Source: Haloferax volcanii DS2
GTDB taxonomy: Archaea > Halobacteriota > Halobacteria > Halobacteriales > Haloferacaceae
Direction: 5' to 3'
DNA length: 32,000 nt
Assembly (NCBI RefSeq): GCF_000025685.1
Contig: NC_013967.1
Span: 1,830,001 to 1,862,000 of the forward strand
A program made the position numbers and the translations under genes. Each line of letters starts with the position of its first letter. Positions within the stretch are counted from its first letter, which is position 1. Of the stretch, positions 6,712 through 32,000 are shown piece after piece. The notes below the pieces were generated by a model. The model saw nothing but the letters and a program-made list of their open reading frames with translations. It searched no databases and was not told the DNA's origin.

Positions 6712-6784
6712 GGGCCGGTGGGGTAGCTTGGTATCCTTCGGCCTTCGGGTGGCCGTAACCTCAGTTCGAATCTGAGCCGGCCCA
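6712..6784 (+). tRNA. tRNA-Pro (anticodon CGG), 73 nt, CCA not encoded
   Basis: Hand fold. Acceptor GGGCCGG/CCGGCCC with discriminator A. Anticodon stem CGGCC/GGCCG (6739-6743/6751-6755) with loop TTCGGGT, anticodon CGG at 6746-6748. T-arm CTCAG-TTCGAAT-CTGAG. The D-arm has GG in its loop, but its exact pairing and the position-26 spacing are slightly irregular in my fold. Confidence 0.85.
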
Positions 6785-25801: not shown

Positions 25802-26071
25802 ATGATGGCAGAACGACAGGAGAAAGAACGACCGGAGTTCGACGAGCTTCCCGACGAGGGGGCGGTAGACTGGATGATTACCCATGCGCTGTTGGCGGCG
25901 AGCGATTCGACCTCGCGGGCCTTAGAATCGCATCTGTTGCAGTCGCAGTACCACGGTGACGCCGGTTTCGACGCGGCGGTGACGGCGCGTCACATCGACG
26001 ACGCAATCGACCGACACACGCGAATTCTCGAGGACTTACGCCTCGCGCGCGACGCGCTCGACCACCGGTAA
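25802..26071 (+). CDS. Small acidic helical hypothetical protein (89 aa)
   Basis: MMAERQEKERPEFDELPDEGAVDWMITHALLAASDSTSRALESHLLQSQYHGDAGFDAAVTARHIDDAIDRHTRILEDLRLARDALDHR. A TATA-like CTTTAAGTAG lies ~27 nt upstream. Composition is coding-like; no family recognised. Confidence 0.5.
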   Translation: MMAERQEKERPEFDELPDEGAVDWMITHALLAASDSTSRALESHLLQSQYHGDAGFDAAVTARHIDDAIDRHTRILEDLRLARDALDHR

Positions 26072-26173
26072 CTCGACCCGAGACCGCCGCGTTGTTGTTC
26101 CCCGCCGCGCGAGCCCGACCGGACGCCCTCCCACATAAGTTGTTTATTTAACAGCGGCTACGAACAACCGCGT

Positions 26174-26482
26174 ATGAAGTTGGCCGTCCCAACTGACTTC
26201 GACATCCTCGAAGCGCTTTCAGATCGGAGGCGAAACACCGCCGTGAACCTCTCGTATATCCTCGATAAGAACCGCTCGTACATCAACACGCGACTGCCGA
26301 TTCTCGCGGACTACGGCCTGTTGGCGCGAGTCGGGCCCGCGCCGAACTCCGGGCTGTACGAAATCACCGACAAGGGGCTGGTCGTCCTCGACAACCGCGA
26401 CCAGTACCGAGCCGACGGCGTCGACTTCGACGCGCTCGTCGAGTCCGAACTCAGGGCGCGGACCGACGAGGCGAACGCCTAA
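26174..26482 (+). CDS. Winged-helix DNA-binding protein of the type annotated in haloarchaea as a PhiH1-repressor homologue
   Basis: MKLAVPTDFDILEALSDRRRNTAVNLSYILDKNRSYINTRLPILADYGLLARVGPAPNSGLYEITDKGLVVL.... This is the characteristic D..ILE.L....R.....L.......Y...R...L...GL......G.Y.IT..G pattern. TATA GTTTATTTAA (26142-26151) lies 23-32 nt upstream. Confidence 0.7.
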   Translation: MKLAVPTDFDILEALSDRRRNTAVNLSYILDKNRSYINTRLPILADYGLLARVGPAPNSGLYEITDKGLVVLDNRDQYRADGVDFDALVESELRARTDEANA

Positions 26483-26666
26483 CAGGAGCAACGCGCCGCA
26501 ACCGAAGGTCGGGACGGCCTTCGGAGGCACCCCGGCGCGCTGTTCCTCGCGCGGAGTGGCAACGCCGCTCAGCCCCGCGTTGTCGACGGGGCCGTGGCGT
26601 CGGGAGTCACCGCGCTGTGCTGCGACCGTCGCCGCCTTTTTGCCGCTTTGCCGCCCAGTTCGAGGT

Positions 26667-27056
26667 ATGGCTATCGAACCACTCTCGCTCGGCGTTCCGA
26701 AGCCCATCATCGACTCGCTACCGGAGGCGGACGGCACGGCGGCACAGGACATGCAGCGCGCCGTCGAGGGACTCGAAACGCGACTGAACCGCGCAATCGA
26801 GGACGCCGACACGGAATCCGAGGCCGCCGGCTACGTCGTCGACGCGCTCGAACGCCTGGAAGGCCACTACGAGCGCTACGACGAGTTCATCCCCGAACTC
26901 CGCGCGTGGGGGCAGTCGCCCATCTACGCCATCGCGTGGCGGAACCTCCAAGCGGACCTCATCCTCCAAATCGAGGAGTACGACTGGCTGAAACCCCACA
27001 TCGACCGCGAACGGAACCTCAGACTGGTCGAAGACGGCATCAGGTACGGCAAGTAG
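26667..27056 (+). CDS. Acidic hypothetical protein (129 aa)
   Basis: ORF 26556-27056 trimmed to ATG 26667 (MAIEPLSLGVPKPIIDSLPEADGTAAQDMQRAVEGLETRLNRAIEDADTESEAAGYVVDALERLEGHYERYDEFIPELRAW...). A T-rich element CCTTTTTGCC lies ~30 nt upstream. No family recognised. Confidence 0.55.
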   Translation: MAIEPLSLGVPKPIIDSLPEADGTAAQDMQRAVEGLETRLNRAIEDADTESEAAGYVVDALERLEGHYERYDEFIPELRAWGQSPIYAIAWRNLQADLILQIEEYDWLKPHIDRERNLRLVEDGIRYGK

Positions 27057-27140
27057 GTACGTCGCCCGCGGCGTCGACTGGGGTGTCGTTTCCGGAGCGA
27101 ACGCTTGTTCAGTCTTGAAGAACTGTGGATAAAGAACACG

Positions 27141-27345
27141 ACCGTGGACAACCTCGCCATATATAAAATTTATTCACCAAACTCGAATGCTTGTTTTCTG
27201 ATTATATTAGTAGAATATATTCTAAAATAGCTATATAACTCGAATAGTATCATGAATGTCGGCAGATAATACTCTATATCGATACTCTTGACTCGACCCT
27301 CCTGTCCCTCAATAGTATTGTCTATTTAAAACACTACTACGCTCC
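27141..27345. other. AT-rich island with short palindromes and direct repeats and no plausible ORF
   Basis: About 27% G+C by hand count over 27161-27290. Perfect 12-bp palindrome AGAATATATTCT (27212-27223). AACTCGAAT occurs twice (27180-27188, 27238-27246), ATACTCT twice (27269-27275, 27282-27288) and AATAGTAT twice (27243-27250, 27311-27318). Multiple TATA-like runs are present. Confidence 0.7.
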
Positions 27346-27640
27346 GAAATTCGCCCTCTCACCTGTGTTCTCTCGTTCGGCGGCGGTTCGGATATCTCGC
27401 TCGACCACCGCGAGTCGGCACTTCCCTCTCCCTGCCCACTCCGTGGCAGACCGACCGGTTTGGTGTCGACCGACGCCGGCGGTGGCGGCGGGCTCGACTC
27501 GACCCGTCCGAGTGATTCATATGACAGCTATCCGGGACGACTTCCGCCGGATTCGAAGCACCTCGTTCGCGCCCGGCCGTTCGACGTCACCGACGCTCTC
27601 TGGAGAGACACAACAGCACAGTCGTTAGTGAGAGTCAGTA

Positions 27641-27705
27641 GTCGCGCCCCGTAAAGGGGTGACCGAACCTAATGGGGAAGGGGGGAAGGGGGGATGAGTT
27701 CGGTC
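27641..27705. other. Two adjacent stem-loops, the second enclosing a G4-AA-G6-AA-G6 purine tract
   Basis: The first hairpin is GTC(GCG)CCCC-GTAAA-GGGG(T)GAC (27641-27663). The second has a perfect 8-bp inverted repeat GACCGAAC (27661-27668) / GTTCGGTC (27698-27705) flanking CTAATGGGGAAGGGGGGAAGGGGGGATGA. Confidence 0.6.
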
Positions 27706-27912
27706 ATGTGGATGCGTCCGAGGGGTTACTCTGTACGGTGTTGCATCCAATTGAGTACAACCACTTCGGATATATAAATCATTCTGATTGTCAGCCCAGA
27801 GGACAGTCTCGGAGTTGGTGTAATAAGTGTAATGGTGTTATACAAGATGAAACGACTCCGGTACTCGGTAACGTAGCCTGCGATACGGCGGGACCTCTTT
27901 CCACCCATCATT

Positions 27913-28141
27913 AACGACACCTTCGACCGGGCCACCGCTCGCGTCAACCGCGCCGAAGAGTCCCCGTGGAATGCGTTCGCGACCTCCCGGACGACGCGGA
28001 CGACGAGTTCGGCCGACTGTTCGAGCGGTTGTGGCCGTACGGAACGAACTCCAGCGGGTGTCGACTCCCGACGACGCGGACGCCGTGGAGGGCGCAGGAG
28101 AGTCGCGGCGTCCCTTCGAGTTCCCGACGACCGACGACTGA
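27913..28141 (+). pseudogene. Possible decayed gene remnant readable only by switching through three frames
   Basis: Acidic, coding-like pieces occur in successive frames: NDTFDRATARVNRAEESPWNAFA, then VRDLPDDADDEFGRLFERLWPYGTNSSG, then VSTPDDADAVEGAGESRRPFEFPTTDD*. Each piece degenerates into Arg-rich nonsense outside its segment. No start or family identified. Confidence 0.25.
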
Positions 28142-28183
28142 CCGCGGTTCGCCTTCGGGCGGAGTTCGCCGGACCGGGGTTCG

Positions 28184-28633
28184 CTACGCTGCCTGCTTCT
28201 CTAACCACTCGCTCGCGTCGACGACGAGGTCGGACAGCGCCTCCTCGACGGACTCGTCGCCCGCGAGGCCGACGCTCCAGGTGACCTGCGACTGTATCGC
28301 TTGCAGGCTGAGCATCGTGTTTTGGACCCGCGACGCCAGCACTACCGGCACTGTCGCGTCGAACCGACGGATACCTTTGACCGCTTCGATGCCCTCGAAC
28401 GCCGGCGGGGCGTGGAGGCAGATAACCAGATGCACCGGTCTCTCGGTCAATCGCTCGAACAACTCCCGACTCGACCCTACGAACTCGACGTTCACGTCGC
28501 GCTCTCTCGCCCCCAACCCCTCGGGCTGCGGGCCGTAAGCGAGGATGCGCGGCGTCGCCGCTATGCTAGTCTCGGACACGCATTCGACTGTTCGTCGAGA
28601 GGGTATTTGACAGTTTCTCCGACCCGAGTCCAC
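28184..28633 (-). CDS. Receiver-like (CheY-fold) single-domain protein lacking the canonical phospho-acceptor residues (pseudo-receiver)
   Basis: Alternating beta/alpha receiver-like pattern. PRILAYGPQ stands where the DD pair normally sits, VHLVICLHAPPAFEGIEAVKGIR where D..MP..G is expected, and VPVVLASR where the T/S motif is expected. It lies 73 nt downstream of cetZ on the same strand. The start is ATG 28633 or GTG 28579. Confidence 0.5.
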   Translation of the reverse strand: MDSGRRNCQIPSRRTVECVSETSIAATPRILAYGPQPEGLGARERDVNVEFVGSSRELFERLTERPVHLVICLHAPPAFEGIEAVKGIRRFDATVPVVLASRVQNTMLSLQAIQSQVTWSVGLAGDESVEEALSDLVVDASEWLEKQAA

Positions 28634-28706
28634 GCCGGACGCCGACGGCGGTCGCGCTCGGCGTCGGACCGCGGGACCGGCGGGAGCTATCGTCGAGGCG
28701 GTCGGG

Positions 28707-29891
28707 TCAGAACAGCGAGTCGAGGCGGTCGTCGACGACGGCCTCCGTTCCGTCCTCGCGGTCGGCGGCGTCGCTCGCGATCCGTTCGCGGCGGTTCTGC
28801 TCGGCTTCGACGGCGGTCGACCGAATTTCGGCCACGCGGTCGCTCCGCGACACGTCGCCGAGGAGGACCAGCACGCCGACGTGGTTCGACTCCGAAAGCG
28901 GGTAGTCGCCCCCGCGGACCTCCATGCTCCCGGTCTGTTCTTCGACCCACGTCCGACTCCGCTCGACGGCCTTCCGGTTGAGCCACTCGGGCGGGCCGCT
29001 GACGACGACCAGCCCGCGGGAGGCGGAGTCGACGTCGCACGGGAGGGTGAGCTGTCCGAGCACAGCCTTCCGCGTCTGGGTCGTGATGCGGTTGATGGAG
29101 TCGAGTTCGTCCGTCGACGACGAATCCCCGCCCAAGAGCCCCTTGATGCTGAACCCGCCGCCGCCGTCGCTCTCGGGGAGTTCGCTTGCCGCGTAGCCGA
29201 TCGTCGAGATGCCGCCGCCGCGGAGGGTGTTGATGACCTCCGAAGAGTCGACGACGCTCTCGGCGACCGTCCCCGACTCGGCCACTTCGCCCGAGGCGAA
29301 GAGGATGCCGAGGCGTCGCACGAGCACCTCGTTCATCGTGTCGTGGGCCTGCGCGACGTCCTCGCCGCTTTCGGCCCACGCCCCGTTGTCGAACGCGAAG
29401 ACGTGGTCGGTCACGTCTACCAACGCCTTGAGCGACCGCGCGGCGTTGCGCGAGTACAGCGCGCCCTCGTCGGCGGCGGGGAGGATGCCGACGCCGTAGA
29501 TGGGCTGTTCGTAGATGCGGTTGAGATGCTTTGCGAGCACGGGGGCCGCGCCGCTGCCCGTCCCGCCGCCGAGACCCGCGAAGATGAGAAACGCGTCGGC
29601 CGTGGAAGTCGGCGCGCCGTCGGTGCCCCGCAGAAGCTGTCGGCTGTCGCGCTCGGCGAGTTCGGCGGCGAGTTCATTGTCCGCGCCGACGCCGTGACCG
29701 CTCACCTCGTCCGCGCCGAAGAGAATACGGTTTTCCTCGGGAACGAGGTCGAGGCCGCGGAGGTCCGCCGACGCGGTGTTGTACGCGACCGCGTCGACGA
29801 CGTAATCGGCGTTCGTGCGCTGTTCGTACCGGAGGAGGGCGTCGAGGACGTTCCCACCCGCTTGTCCCATTCCGAAGCAAAGGACCTTCAT
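28707..29891 (-). CDS. cetZ: CetZ-family tubulin/FtsZ superfamily protein
   Basis: ORF 28707-29912 trimmed to ATG 29891 (MKVLCFGMGQAGGNVLDALL...). Tubulin signature FAGLGGGTGSGAAPV and a CetZ-like N-terminus and length (394 aa). Which CetZ paralogue it is cannot be determined here. Confidence 0.9.
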   Translation of the reverse strand: MKVLCFGMGQAGGNVLDALLRYEQRTNADYVVDAVAYNTASADLRGLDLVPEENRILFGADEVSGHGVGADNELAAELAERDSRQLLRGTDGAPTSTADAFLIFAGLGGGTGSGAAPVLAKHLNRIYEQPIYGVGILPAADEGALYSRNAARSLKALVDVTDHVFAFDNGAWAESGEDVAQAHDTMNEVLVRRLGILFASGEVAESGTVAESVVDSSEVINTLRGGGISTIGYAASELPESDGGGGFSIKGLLGGDSSSTDELDSINRITTQTRKAVLGQLTLPCDVDSASRGLVVVSGPPEWLNRKAVERSRTWVEEQTGSMEVRGGDYPLSESNHVGVLVLLGDVSRSDRVAEIRSTAVEAEQNRRERIASDAADREDGTEAVVDDRLDSLF

Positions 29892-30014
29892 CGTCTCTCT
29901 TTGACACGTCATCAGTGGTGAATCTTCTGTTAGTTGCCTGCCACACCGAGTCGAACGCGCCGCCGGGGACGGGGTAGTTCTATACGACCCGGGCGAGAAT
30001 CATCGGCAAACTGC

Positions 30015-30512
30015 ATGACTTGTCCGCGGTGTTCACAGCCACTCTCGACGCTCTCGTTCGACGGTCGCGCGGCGCGCTACTGCGAGCGCTGCGGCTTCGT
30101 CGGCGTCGAGACCGTCCACGAGCGCGACGCGCCGAGCCGAGAGTCGTGGGACGACGCCATCGCTCGCTTCCACGAGCGGGCGCTCCGCGAGGCGCGCGAG
30201 CGGGACGACGGCGCGGGCGGTACCGGCGGAGCCGACAGCGGCGAGGCAACCGACGGCGACACCGCGGTCGAAGCCGAGCGCAACGGAGCCGGCGCGGAGG
30301 ACGATGAGACGCACCCGGCGGACGATGCGACCGACGCGGCGGACGACGCCGAAGCCGAACACGGGGGCGGCGACACGACTGAAGACGTGGCTGCTGCCGG
30401 TGACGACGAGGGCGACGACGAAGCAACCGACCGCGAGCCCAGTGACTCGCAACTGAAAAACGGGGAGGACGGCGACCGCGGGGACCGCGCTGACCGCGCG
30501 GGCGACGAGTGA
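30015..30512 (+). CDS. C4 zinc-ribbon protein with a long poly-acidic disordered C-terminal tail
   Basis: ATG 30015: MTCPRCSQPLSTLSFDGRAARYCERCGFVGVE (CxxC...CxxC), a short helical segment, then ~110 aa rich in D/E/G/A/T (…DDETHPADDATDAADDAEAEHGGGDTTEDVAAAGDDEGDDEATD…). TATA-like TTCTATAC lies ~30 nt upstream. The 27 codons upstream in the ORF are Arg-rich and are excluded. Confidence 0.6.
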   Translation: MTCPRCSQPLSTLSFDGRAARYCERCGFVGVETVHERDAPSRESWDDAIARFHERALREARERDDGAGGTGGADSGEATDGDTAVEAERNGAGAEDDETHPADDATDAADDAEAEHGGGDTTEDVAAAGDDEGDDEATDREPSDSQLKNGEDGDRGDRADRAGDE

Positions 30513-30593
30513 CGCGCGCTCGCGCGTCGCCGGCGGCGCGTCGACCTCGGTCGTGACGTACTGTCCGGCCGGTGTGTCAGCTCGGACCGGCGC

Positions 30594-31631
30594 TCAGTTC
30601 GATTCCGGCGCGGCTTCGGCTTCCGGTTCGGGGTCGGAGGCGCCCCCGTCGGATTCCTCTTCGGAGCGGGCGGCGACGAGCGACCCGCGGGCGACGCTGT
30701 ACAGGGGGCGGTCGATGCTCCGGACCTCGTTGACCGAGAACGGAATCGTCGAGTCTTCGAGGTGGTGTTCGAACAGCTCCTCGAAGCCCTCGGGGCTGGA
30801 GGTGCCCCCGGTGACGACGACGGGCACGTCGAGGCCCTCCTCGATGTCTTCCTCGTCGACCTCGCGTTCGATGTTCTCGATGACGTAGTCGAGGAGGTTC
30901 TCGTAGTAAATCGACAGCGCGCCCTCGACGCCGCCGACGTCCGTGCGGAAGTCGAGCTGGAAGTCGTCTTCCTTGATGGACGTGACCTTGTCGACGGCCG
31001 TCCCGGTGGCCTGGGCGGTCTGCTGGTCTATCCAGTCGCCGCCGCGGGCGATGGAGAACTGCATGACCGGCACCGCGTAGTACGCCAGGCAGATGTTCGT
31101 CATCCCCGCGCCGAACGAGACGCCGAGGCCGGTGAAGTTGTTGTCGGCGAGTTCGCTGTAAATGACCGCCATCCCCTCGTTGATGGGTTCGGGGTCGTAG
31201 CCCATGTCGCCGAGCATCGATTCGAGCGTCTTGTCGTGATACAGCGTCGAGAGGTCGGAGTCGATGGGGTCCGCCGGACTCGAATAAAACAGGCGCTCGT
31301 TCGGCCGGGAGGGCGAGCCGACGACCTGCTCGATGATGAGCTTAATCATCGGAATCGCGGAGGACTCCTCGCTGGAGAGGATGCCGTGTTGCATCGGCCG
31401 TCGCGTCTCCTTGCCGAAGATGTTCGCGAAGTTGAGCGCGTCGTCGCCGACGACGTACACCTTGTCGTCCTTGCGGATGTGGAGCACGTCGCTTCGCGAG
31501 AGCATCTGCTCCGCCATGTCGCTGTAATCGATTTCGACGAACGAGTTGCGCTGCTGGACAAATACGGTCTCACTCCCATCCTGACTCGCGGACAGGATGT
31601 TCATGGTTCCTACGTCAAGGCCTTTCGCCAT
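30594..31631 (-). CDS. volA: Actin-superfamily ATPase matching what I remember as volactin (Haloferax actin homologue linked to disk-shape formation)
   Basis: Actin-fold motifs: phosphate-1 GLDVGTMN, phosphate-2 [10 protein letters not shown] and the adenosine motif [13 protein letters not shown]. The tail is acidic. Its position next to cetZ matches my memory of the H. volcanii locus (unverified). Confidence 0.85.
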
Positions 31632-31653
31632 ACCTCACGCGTCGTAGGGCTGT

Positions 31654-31671
31654 CGCATAAATCTGTATGCG
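31654..31671 (-). promoter_or_regulatory. TATA box embedded in a 6-bp inverted repeat upstream of the actin-like gene
   Basis: The plus strand reads CGCATAAATCTGTATGCG. The arms are CGCATA and TATGCG with a 6-nt spacer. The minus-strand ATTTAT lies 26-31 nt upstream of ATG 31631, which is leaderless geometry. Confidence 0.45.
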
Positions 31672-31769
31672 CGTTTGCGATTCGGTTCGGCCGGGACCGA
31701 CGCCGAACCACCGTCGCGTCACTCCCTGACCGACGCCGCGTCAGTCCCCGCCCGCCGGCCCGCGACGCC

Positions 31770-32000
31770 TCAGGAGAACAGCCCGCGAATCCGGTCGACC
31801 AGTCCCTCGGCGTCCTCGCGTTCGGCCTCCGCCTGCTGTTGTTTCCGTAACTCGGCCAGCGCGGCGGTCTGGTCGTCCGTGCTGTCACCGACCGCCGTGT
31901 CCTTCTTCCCGCCGCGAAGTCCCTGGAGCCCCGCGACCGCGTCGTCGACGCCGCCGCCGCGCGTCTCGGTCGCTTTCGCGTTCTCGAAGCTCGCGCGGTC
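31770..32000 (-). CDS. 3' end (76 codons) of a low-complexity acidic protein ending in a short amphipathic helix; the gene continues beyond the right edge
   Basis: Own minus-strand translation: DRASFENAKATETRGGGVDDAVAGLQGLRGGKKDTAVGDSTDDQTAALAELRKQQQAEAEREDAEGLVDRIRGLFS*. Codons are GC3-rich. It is not in the ORF track because the window truncates it. No family recognised. Confidence 0.5.
   Translation of the reverse strand, partial: DRASFENAKATETRGGGVDDAVAGLQGLRGGKKDTAVGDSTDDQTAALAELRKQQQAEAEREDAEGLVDRIRGLFS

Follow-up and report, generated by a model that had tools for sequence, protein, structure and literature searches.

Do the tubulin-like and the actin-like gene that lie side by side in the chromosome of Haloferax form one cell-shape module together with their neighbors, or does their proximity combine gene sets of different age? 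The question is raised by the end of a 32,000-nt stretch of Haloferax DNA (contig NC_013967.1, positions 1,830,001 to 1,862,000; hereafter the window), where the genes between positions 28184 and 32000 are the orthologs of H. volcanii HVO_2012 to HVO_2016. They code, in this order, for a receiver-like protein, the CetZ-family protein CetZ5, a zinc-ribbon protein, the actin homolog volactin (gene volA), and a CdpA-like membrane protein. A preliminary description of the window had proposed that these five genes constitute a so far undescribed shape-control module. All five open reading frames (ORFs) were indeed found at or near the positions given there and matched the families named; the locus is related to cell shape, and its gene order is maintained within Haloferax, whereas conservation of the five-gene arrangement beyond this genus was not found. 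On balance, the locus is best read as a composite, in which an old three-gene volactin module, with the CdpA-like protein as putative membrane tether and the zinc-ribbon protein as putative accessory factor, has received a Haloferax-specific addition consisting of cetZ5 and the pseudo-receiver gene.

The main evidence for this reading comes from the gene neighborhood of volA. Volactin (345 aa; volA, 30594–31631, minus strand) is an actin-fold ATPase that covers 321 of the 321 positions of the profile PF25216 (450 bits at a cut-off of 35; E = 6e-135), is 100% identical to the NCBI entry [quoted passage not shown] and retains an identity of at least 80% across the haloarchaeal genera sampled. 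A search with a volactin profile, in which each species was represented by one genome, gave 421 matches, of which the best-scoring 80 loci were used with 10 kb on either side and annotated by tblastn and by iterated hidden Markov models built on all ORFs. The order of the receiver-like gene, cetZ5, the zinc-ribbon gene, and volA, whose retention across Halobacteria the preliminary description had put forward as a question, was kept in eight of eight Haloferax loci and not beyond the genus. In these eight loci the receiver-like gene was always located downstream of cetZ5; it was found in none of the 72 other loci, only two of which had a CetZ gene within 10 kb of volA, one of them being the Halorubrum ezzemoulense locus treated below. 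A CdpA-like gene, in contrast, was present near volA in 46 of the 80 loci, which represent approximately 20 named genera, and in 45 of these it immediately preceded volA in the same orientation (the exception being locus L075, where it is found downstream of volA and the zinc-ribbon gene). The zinc-ribbon gene was adjacent in 43 of the 80 loci; it is transcribed away from the CdpA-like gene in Halorubrum, Halopenitus, Halonotius, and Salinirussus and otherwise converges on volA. The families with such volactin-linked genes include the Haloferacaceae, Natrialbaceae, Halorubellaceae, and Natronomonadaceae. All-against-all clustering of the ORFs in the volA loci was dominated by the antisense ORFs of the GC-rich genomes and yielded family-level neighbors only, such as an arylsulfotransferase-like gene upstream of volA in some Haloferacaceae.

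The linkage was also approached from the side of the zinc-ribbon gene by a metagenome scan with the zinc-ribbon core (an alignment of eight sequences), which retrieved 80 contigs. Of these, 71 carry volA and/or a CdpA-like gene: both partners are present in 42, volA is reached before the contig ends in 15, and 14 have the CdpA-like gene only. Among the last, seven contigs end at this point and seven have room for volA yet lack it. The nine contigs with neither partner each have less than 600 nt of flanking sequence on one side, and no informative counter-example to the linkage of the zinc-ribbon gene was found among the 80 contigs. In 24 contigs the gene and volA converge, and in 18 of the 42 complete ones it is transcribed divergently from the CdpA-like gene. 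The only contigs with a CetZ gene near the zinc-ribbon gene were three of Haloferax type and one that shows the layout of Halorubrum ezzemoulense (see below). The preliminary description had regarded the zinc-ribbon gene and the truncated gene upstream of volA as accessory neighbors; it is these two, rather than the CetZ and receiver genes, that emerge as the conserved partners of volactin. As their association with volA is confined to one genus, neither CetZ5 nor the pseudo-receiver is a promising candidate for a core partner of volactin, whereas HVO_2016 and HVO_2014 are strong ones, since their linkage to volactin, or to each other, survives many genome rearrangements.

That the region concerns cell shape agrees with published work, and the assumption that the locus had not been described as a unit turned out to be mistaken. 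Schiller et al. (2024; Nat Commun, PMC10869688) already treat hvo_2013 to hvo_2020 as one of three suspected shape regions, which is named in their Supplementary Note 4. Their supplementary tables contain HVO_2012 (“receiver box response regulator”), HVO_2013 (cetZ5), HVO_2015 (renamed volactin), and HVO_2016. In H. volcanii, the levels of CetZ5, VolA, and HVO_2016 are all higher in disks, HVO_2012 shows no significant change in abundance in the same shape proteomics, and dynamic filaments and the promotion of disk shape were demonstrated experimentally for the H. volcanii volactin, which is identical to that of the window (PMC10869688). An mBio paper of 2025 found that conditioned medium raises both VolA and CetZ5, and a 2026 preprint on QarABC, which reuses the label “HVO_2013-HVO_2020 locus,” reports altered expression of HVO_2014, HVO_2017, and HVO_2020 in ΔqarA. 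The window shares genes and gene order with this H. volcanii region (identity of 100% for volactin and 99% for CetZ5), but covers only one end of it. In the searchable literature, no cross-genus synteny analysis of the region and no functional work on HVO_2012, HVO_2014, or HVO_2016 were found; HVO_2012 is not discussed there, and HVO_2014 is mentioned once, for its differential expression in ΔqarA.

Of the CdpA-like gene, only the 3′ end with the last 76 codons and the stop codon (31770–32000, minus strand) lies in the window, whose end cuts it; the full gene was therefore read in the identical Haloferax contig L004. Its characterization in the preliminary description as a low-complexity protein falls short, as the fragment is the disordered cytoplasmic tail of a four-transmembrane DUF7139/CdpA_N protein. 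The complete protein has a length of 299 aa and matches PF23600 with 124 bits at residues 8–158. An AlphaFold2 model based on 41 homologs predicts four long transmembrane helices (residues 23–161, pLDDT 80–94) and a mostly disordered cytoplasmic half with short helices at residues 180–197 and 242–249 and a C-terminal helix at residues 265–298. Several cytoplasmic segments are conserved despite their predicted disorder, among them ELSWGGV, in which W-G-G is invariant, and G-[VLI]-[VI]-D-R-x-R-x-L-F at the C-terminus. Conserved motifs of this kind in a tail that is disordered according to the model are typically the signature of short binding motifs.

Homology to HVO_0739, a length of 260–400 aa, and four transmembrane segments in the N-terminal 75% of the protein, by which the CdpA family is delimited (Liao et al., 2025; PMC12126565), are all found in the CdpA-like protein. 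The same study designates HVO_2016 a “CdpA-like protein” adjoining volactin and places it as outgroup of the CdpA tree. It resembles CdpA, the membrane anchor of the FtsZ ring (PMC12126565), in its four-transmembrane N-terminal domain, disordered linker, and small C-terminal element, and its gene likewise adjoins that of a cytoskeletal polymer. The two differ in that the polymer encoded beside HVO_2016 is an actin homolog and not FtsZ, and in the classification of HVO_2016 as outgroup. A pull-down with CdpA-HA recovered volactin with a log2 fold change of 2.5 and p = 0.06 (Liao et al., 2025; PMC12126565).

The zinc-ribbon protein (165 aa) has the C4 zinc ribbon and the acidic tail that had been attributed to it. 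It consists of a core of 58 aa (30015–30188, plus strand) and a variable tail of 107 aa (30189–30512 including the stop codon) with 37% Asp and Glu. The ribbon, CPRC-x16-CERC, contains two CxxC pairs and scores slightly above the cut-offs of PF06827 (23.8 bits, cut-off 21.3) and PF13453 (22.8 bits, cut-off 22); no dedicated Pfam or NCBIfam model for the protein was matched. The core, which aligns without gaps over 55–58 aa, follows the pattern CPxC-x16-CxxCG[YFW]xG, an invariant His, and then a helix motif ESWxxAxxRF, and C3, C6, C23, C26, H35, E43, W45, A48, and R51 are invariant in 24 orthologs from many genera. The acidic tail is absent in 13 of 43 orthologs, which consist of the core alone (55–59 aa), and in 8 of the 43 a second ESW motif and other acidic repeats take its place; the tail thus lies outside the conserved core. 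At E ≤ 1e-3, 1.84 billion representative sequences yield 195 clusters of this small family, whose domain is almost always N-terminal. Two copies of ESWxDALxRFY were seen in the proteins of Haloplanus, Salinirarus, Salinigranum, and one metagenome-assembled genome of the Haloferacaceae (L015); the loci with the doubled motif are L074 (11014–11502), L079, L084, L015, L016, L032, and L071. In Haloplanus litoreus (L074), a fourfold repeat of ESNEEESTED comes after the second ESW copy.

The cetZ5 gene (28707–29891, minus strand) codes for 394 aa with clear matches to PF00091 (105 bits, cut-off 33; E = 6e-30) and to the CetZ_C profile PF21011 (237 bits, cut-off 21.6; E = 1e-70). The distance of 702 nt between the start of cetZ5 and the stop of volA agrees with the spacing of about 0.7 kb noted earlier. 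The protein is 99% identical to its H. volcanii counterpart and its neighbors match those in other Haloferax genomes, which assigns it to the CetZ5 orthologous group. Contrary to the view that the role of this paralog was undescribed, CetZ5 has already been deleted and tagged, with weak phenotypes: in published work, neither motility nor morphology was altered in ΔcetZ5 grown in liquid culture, GFP-CetZ5 gave a diffuse signal, and in early biofilms the deletion cells were longer and less round. CetZ5 aligns end to end (413 bits) with the crystal structure 4B46 of CetZ1 (HVO_2204), the tubulin of H. volcanii rod shape and motility. Since the GTP-binding signature GGGTGSG and the catalytic Glu of the T7 loop (Glu218 of CetZ1) are conserved in a residue-by-residue alignment to 4B46, CetZ5 looks competent, as far as its sequence indicates, for GTP binding and polymer-dependent hydrolysis. 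Unlike CetZ1, it is apparently restricted to Haloferax with the exception of one metagenome relative, is enriched in disks instead of rods, and its deletion has weak and condition-dependent effects. Relatives of CetZ5 share 82–99% identity within Haloferax and 63% in that one metagenome contig, and then reach a plateau at 52–55%, where scores are about those of CetZ1 itself (413 bits to 4B46).

This 63% identical relative, encoded on contig Ga0401367_0007011 (L087, 4062–8051), is of interest for the origin of the Haloferax arrangement. Its gene stands beside homologs of HVO_2021, HVO_2022, and HVO_2024 (DUF8073) with no volA block in between, whereas in Haloferax HVO_2014 to HVO_2020 separate cetZ5 from HVO_2021/2022/2024, which are found beyond the volactin block. 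The single outgroup contig is only suggestive of a rearrangement in the Haloferax lineage that joined cetZ5 and the volactin block.

A second juxtaposition of a tubulin and an actin gene, independent of that in Haloferax, was observed in Halorubrum ezzemoulense (L039, 6380–10017) and on metagenome contig L109, where a CetZ1 ortholog lies 1.3–2.3 kb from a cluster of zinc-ribbon, CdpA-like, and volA genes. An acidic protein of 254 aa with a Rho_N-like motif is encoded between CetZ1 and this cluster. The CetZ protein was also considered as an ortholog of CetZ5, which was ruled out by its score of 609 bits to 4B46, identifying it as CetZ1. The C-termini of CetZ5 (28707–28730; ...RLDSLF) and of H. 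ezzemoulense CetZ1 (...ELESLF) resemble that of the CdpA-like protein (31770–31805; ...LVDRIRGLFS, which contains the conserved D-R-x-R-x-L-F), but the common acidic-x-x-x-L-F ending may well be a coincidence between such short sequences.

The gene downstream of cetZ5 was confirmed as real, although probably not in its full proposed extent of 28184–28633. A GTG start at 28579 is most likely, since it is used by gene callers and five other Haloferax species permit no longer ORF; the gene then occupies 28184–28579 on the minus strand, codes for 131 aa, and is separated from cetZ5 by 127 nt. The protein scores 24 bits with the receiver profile PF00072, thus not reaching the cut-off of 30.2, and covers profile positions 20–91 only. 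The best match in the PDB is CheY (E = 0.0098; hhalign probability 43%), and the two alignments to CheY-type receivers cover the region from strand 3 to strand 4. The position of the phospho-acceptor Asp57 of CheY is taken by Leu (hhalign) or by the preceding Cys (phmmer), the Asp12/Asp13 pair is absent as the strand-1 segment RILAYGPQP has no acidic residue, and Ser replaces Thr87 in one of the two alignments. The residues at the phospho-acceptor site, in strand 1, and at the Ser position are invariant across seven Haloferax orthologs. With the canonical phospho-acceptor Asp absent, the label “pseudo-receiver” is fair at the sequence level; a single-sequence AlphaFold2 model had a mean pLDDT of 36.6, which is too low to show the fold.

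Taken together, these data suggest a locus of two parts. The first, comprising the CdpA-like gene, volA, and the zinc-ribbon gene, would be of old origin and broadly distributed among Halobacteria. In this part, the CdpA-like protein may tether or organize volactin filaments at the membrane by means of the short motifs in its disordered tail, by analogy with its paralog CdpA, which anchors the FtsZ ring. The zinc-ribbon protein (55 aa in its core form) may serve as accessory factor of the CdpA-like/volactin pair and act through its ESWxxAxxRF helix. The second part would be specific to Haloferax and consist of cetZ5, a diverged paralog of the CetZ1 type, and of the gene of a pseudo-receiver that is presumably not phosphorylatable at the usual site; a rearrangement in the Haloferax lineage would have placed both beside the first part. 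Synteny, domain architecture, and the published co-abundance are the basis on which we infer a tether role and an accessory role. CetZ5 and volactin, which change in abundance in the same direction in H. volcanii, may cooperate within Haloferax, but nothing was seen to link them beyond this genus.

Several observations weigh against this interpretation. In Halorubrum, volA stands alone between unrelated genes in 29 of 34 loci, and it retains its own TATA box: the sequence TTTAT (31657–31661, minus strand) is located 26–30 nt upstream of the volA start codon, and a T-rich box at this position is kept in nearly all 80 volA loci, including the solo Halorubrum ones. Volactin thus probably has its own promoter, a function suggested by the box lying where a haloarchaeal TATA box would be looked for, and adjacency to the partner genes is not required for its function. 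Furthermore, the distance from the CdpA-like gene to volA varies from 51 to 373 nt, which indicates a conserved neighborhood rather than a tight operon, and the 80 loci, being the best-scoring of 421, are skewed toward the Haloferacaceae and include 34 from Halorubrum. Finally, the adjacency of cetZ5 and volA in Haloferax and their matching abundance could reflect real cooperation, and HVO_2016 could work in cell division like CdpA, with the midcell protein CdpB3 (HVO_2019) encoded nearby in Haloferax. As to the solo-volA loci, the CdpA-like gene was found on another contig in two such Halorubrum species. In Halorubrum sp. Hd13, a divergent zinc-ribbon gene of 59 aa lies beside the CdpA-like gene, with volA on another contig; in Halorubrum sp. 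DTA46 (L090, 4598–5770), whose volA is also on another contig, a 390-aa gene without Pfam family occupies the place expected for the zinc-ribbon gene and may be an insertion that displaced it. A second, triad-linked volactin copy in Halorubrum was considered, for which these two species gave no support, as the contig with the CdpA-like gene lacked volA.

The possible cooperation of CetZ5 with volactin and the possible division role of HVO_2016 correspond to alternative explanations of the locus that have to be weighed, together with a third that concerns the zinc-ribbon protein. If the five genes were one integrated shape module in which CetZ5, volactin, and the pseudo-receiver act together, at least in Haloferax, the gene order common to all eight Haloferax species and to the three Haloferax-type metagenome contigs would be explained, and so would the joint rise of CetZ5, VolA, and HVO_2016 in disks and of VolA and CetZ5 in conditioned medium. 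The longer and less round ΔcetZ5 cells in early biofilms, which differ from the wild type in the same direction as cells depleted of volA, the response of HVO_2014, HVO_2017, and HVO_2020 to the loss of QarA, and the independent approach of CetZ1 to the volactin cluster in H. ezzemoulense (1.3–2.3 kb) also fit such a module. It is nevertheless considered unlikely: outside Haloferax the receiver gene accompanies volA in none and CetZ in two of 72 loci, ΔcetZ5 is without a motility or morphology phenotype in liquid culture, the GFP-tagged protein is diffuse, the abundance of HVO_2012 does not depend on shape, and the nearest CetZ5 relative from outside the genus resides in a different neighborhood.

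Less probable still is that the CdpA-like protein is a cell-division factor in the manner of CdpA, possibly acting with CdpB3, and that its proximity to volA is mechanistically irrelevant. Its CdpA N-terminal domain (PF23600, 124 bits) and identical three-part architecture would be expected in this case, the midcell PRC-barrel protein CdpB3 is encoded three genes away in Haloferax, and the CdpA-like gene is found apart from volA in many Halorubrum species. However, a CdpB3-type gene is a neighbor only in Haloferax, while the CdpA-like gene stands directly upstream of volA and on the same strand in approximately 20 genera in which all other neighbors differ; in addition, the abundance of HVO_2016 tracks that of VolA in disks, and Liao et al. 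(PMC12126565) treat HVO_2016 as a separate “CdpA-like” lineage and as outgroup of the CdpA tree. The zinc-ribbon protein, in turn, might not be a structural partner but a small regulator that controls transcription of the CdpA-like gene, of volA, or of both. Its divergent orientation to the CdpA-like gene, which 18 of 42 complete contigs show, is a common layout of regulator and target, its marginal match to a TFIIB-type zinc ribbon (22.8 bits against a cut-off of 22) points in the same direction, and the HVO_2014 transcript is altered in ΔqarA. On the other hand, the protein has no recognizable DNA-binding domain, its ESWxxAxxRF helix, which is the best conserved part apart from the zinc ribbon and is duplicated in some genera, looks more like a protein-binding peptide, and in most loci the gene is convergent with volA and not divergent from a target, so that we regard a regulatory role as rather doubtful. 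The composite reading, with an old volactin module and a younger CetZ5/pseudo-receiver addition, accordingly remains the one adopted here.

Further features of the window and its surroundings were recorded. The zinc-ribbon gene and volA are convergent with a gap of 81 nt. By inspection only, the divergent intergenic region of 123 nt between cetZ5 and the zinc-ribbon gene (29892–30014) contains a TATA-like TTCTATAC upstream of the zinc-ribbon start codon and no clear TATA box for cetZ5. At the nucleotide level the window is 100% identical to the Haloferax assembly GCA_018420055.1 and 98.3–98.7% identical to four other Haloferax-type assemblies and one metagenome scaffold, all of which encode an identical volactin; the protein is unchanged in many Haloferax assemblies. 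Just past the end of the window, the Haloferax locus has four further genes (L004, 5088–8855): HVO_2017 is a pentapeptide-repeat protein of 459 aa, HVO_2018 (119 aa) belongs to no family, HVO_2019 is a PRC-barrel protein of 90 aa published as the midcell protein CdpB3, and HVO_2020 is a DUF502 membrane protein. In the 80 volA loci, these four genes are neighbors of volA only in Haloferax. The sole tRNA gene of the window, tRNA-Pro (CGG), is located at 6712–6784, and an Rfam scan of 26000–32000 gave no match.

A conserved element was seen at 27660–27800 (minus strand), within a gene-free stretch of 1.1 kb between the HVO_2012 ortholog and a DUF7971 gene. It comprises approximately 100 nt that are nearly invariant across eight Haloferax species including H. 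mucosum, a degree of conservation far above that of the flanking protein genes. A TTTATATAT box lies approximately 25 nt upstream on the minus strand, and the element itself holds a GGATGC...GCATCC hairpin and a C-rich run (CCCCCCTTCCCCCCTTCCCC), with a fold z-score of −1.95 and no Rfam match. It is a candidate for a small RNA.

A precedent for an archaeal actin gene that stands beside genes of small accessory proteins may be found in the Thermoproteales, where the crenactin gene is reportedly kept next to small arcadin genes and arcadin-2 is said to bind the actin through a short helix. This likeness is a lead only. The arcadins have no sequence relationship to the zinc-ribbon or CdpA-like proteins, and the arcadin cluster is not known to include a membrane-protein partner.

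As a five-gene module, the locus re-discovers a region that is already under study in Haloferax laboratories, and adds little to it. The new lead worth following is that HVO_2016 and HVO_2014 are conserved companions of volactin, which can be addressed genetically in an organism with good tools. It is conceivable, although we would put this forward only tentatively, that Halobacteria possess a dedicated and conserved two-protein accessory system for volactin, in which a CdpA-type four-transmembrane tether is joined by a zinc-ribbon protein whose helix would bind volactin or the tether and control the assembly or placement of the filaments. If this holds true, the two proteins would represent the first anchor-plus-regulator set for a euryarchaeal actin, and the zinc-ribbon protein a new kind of small actin-associated protein.

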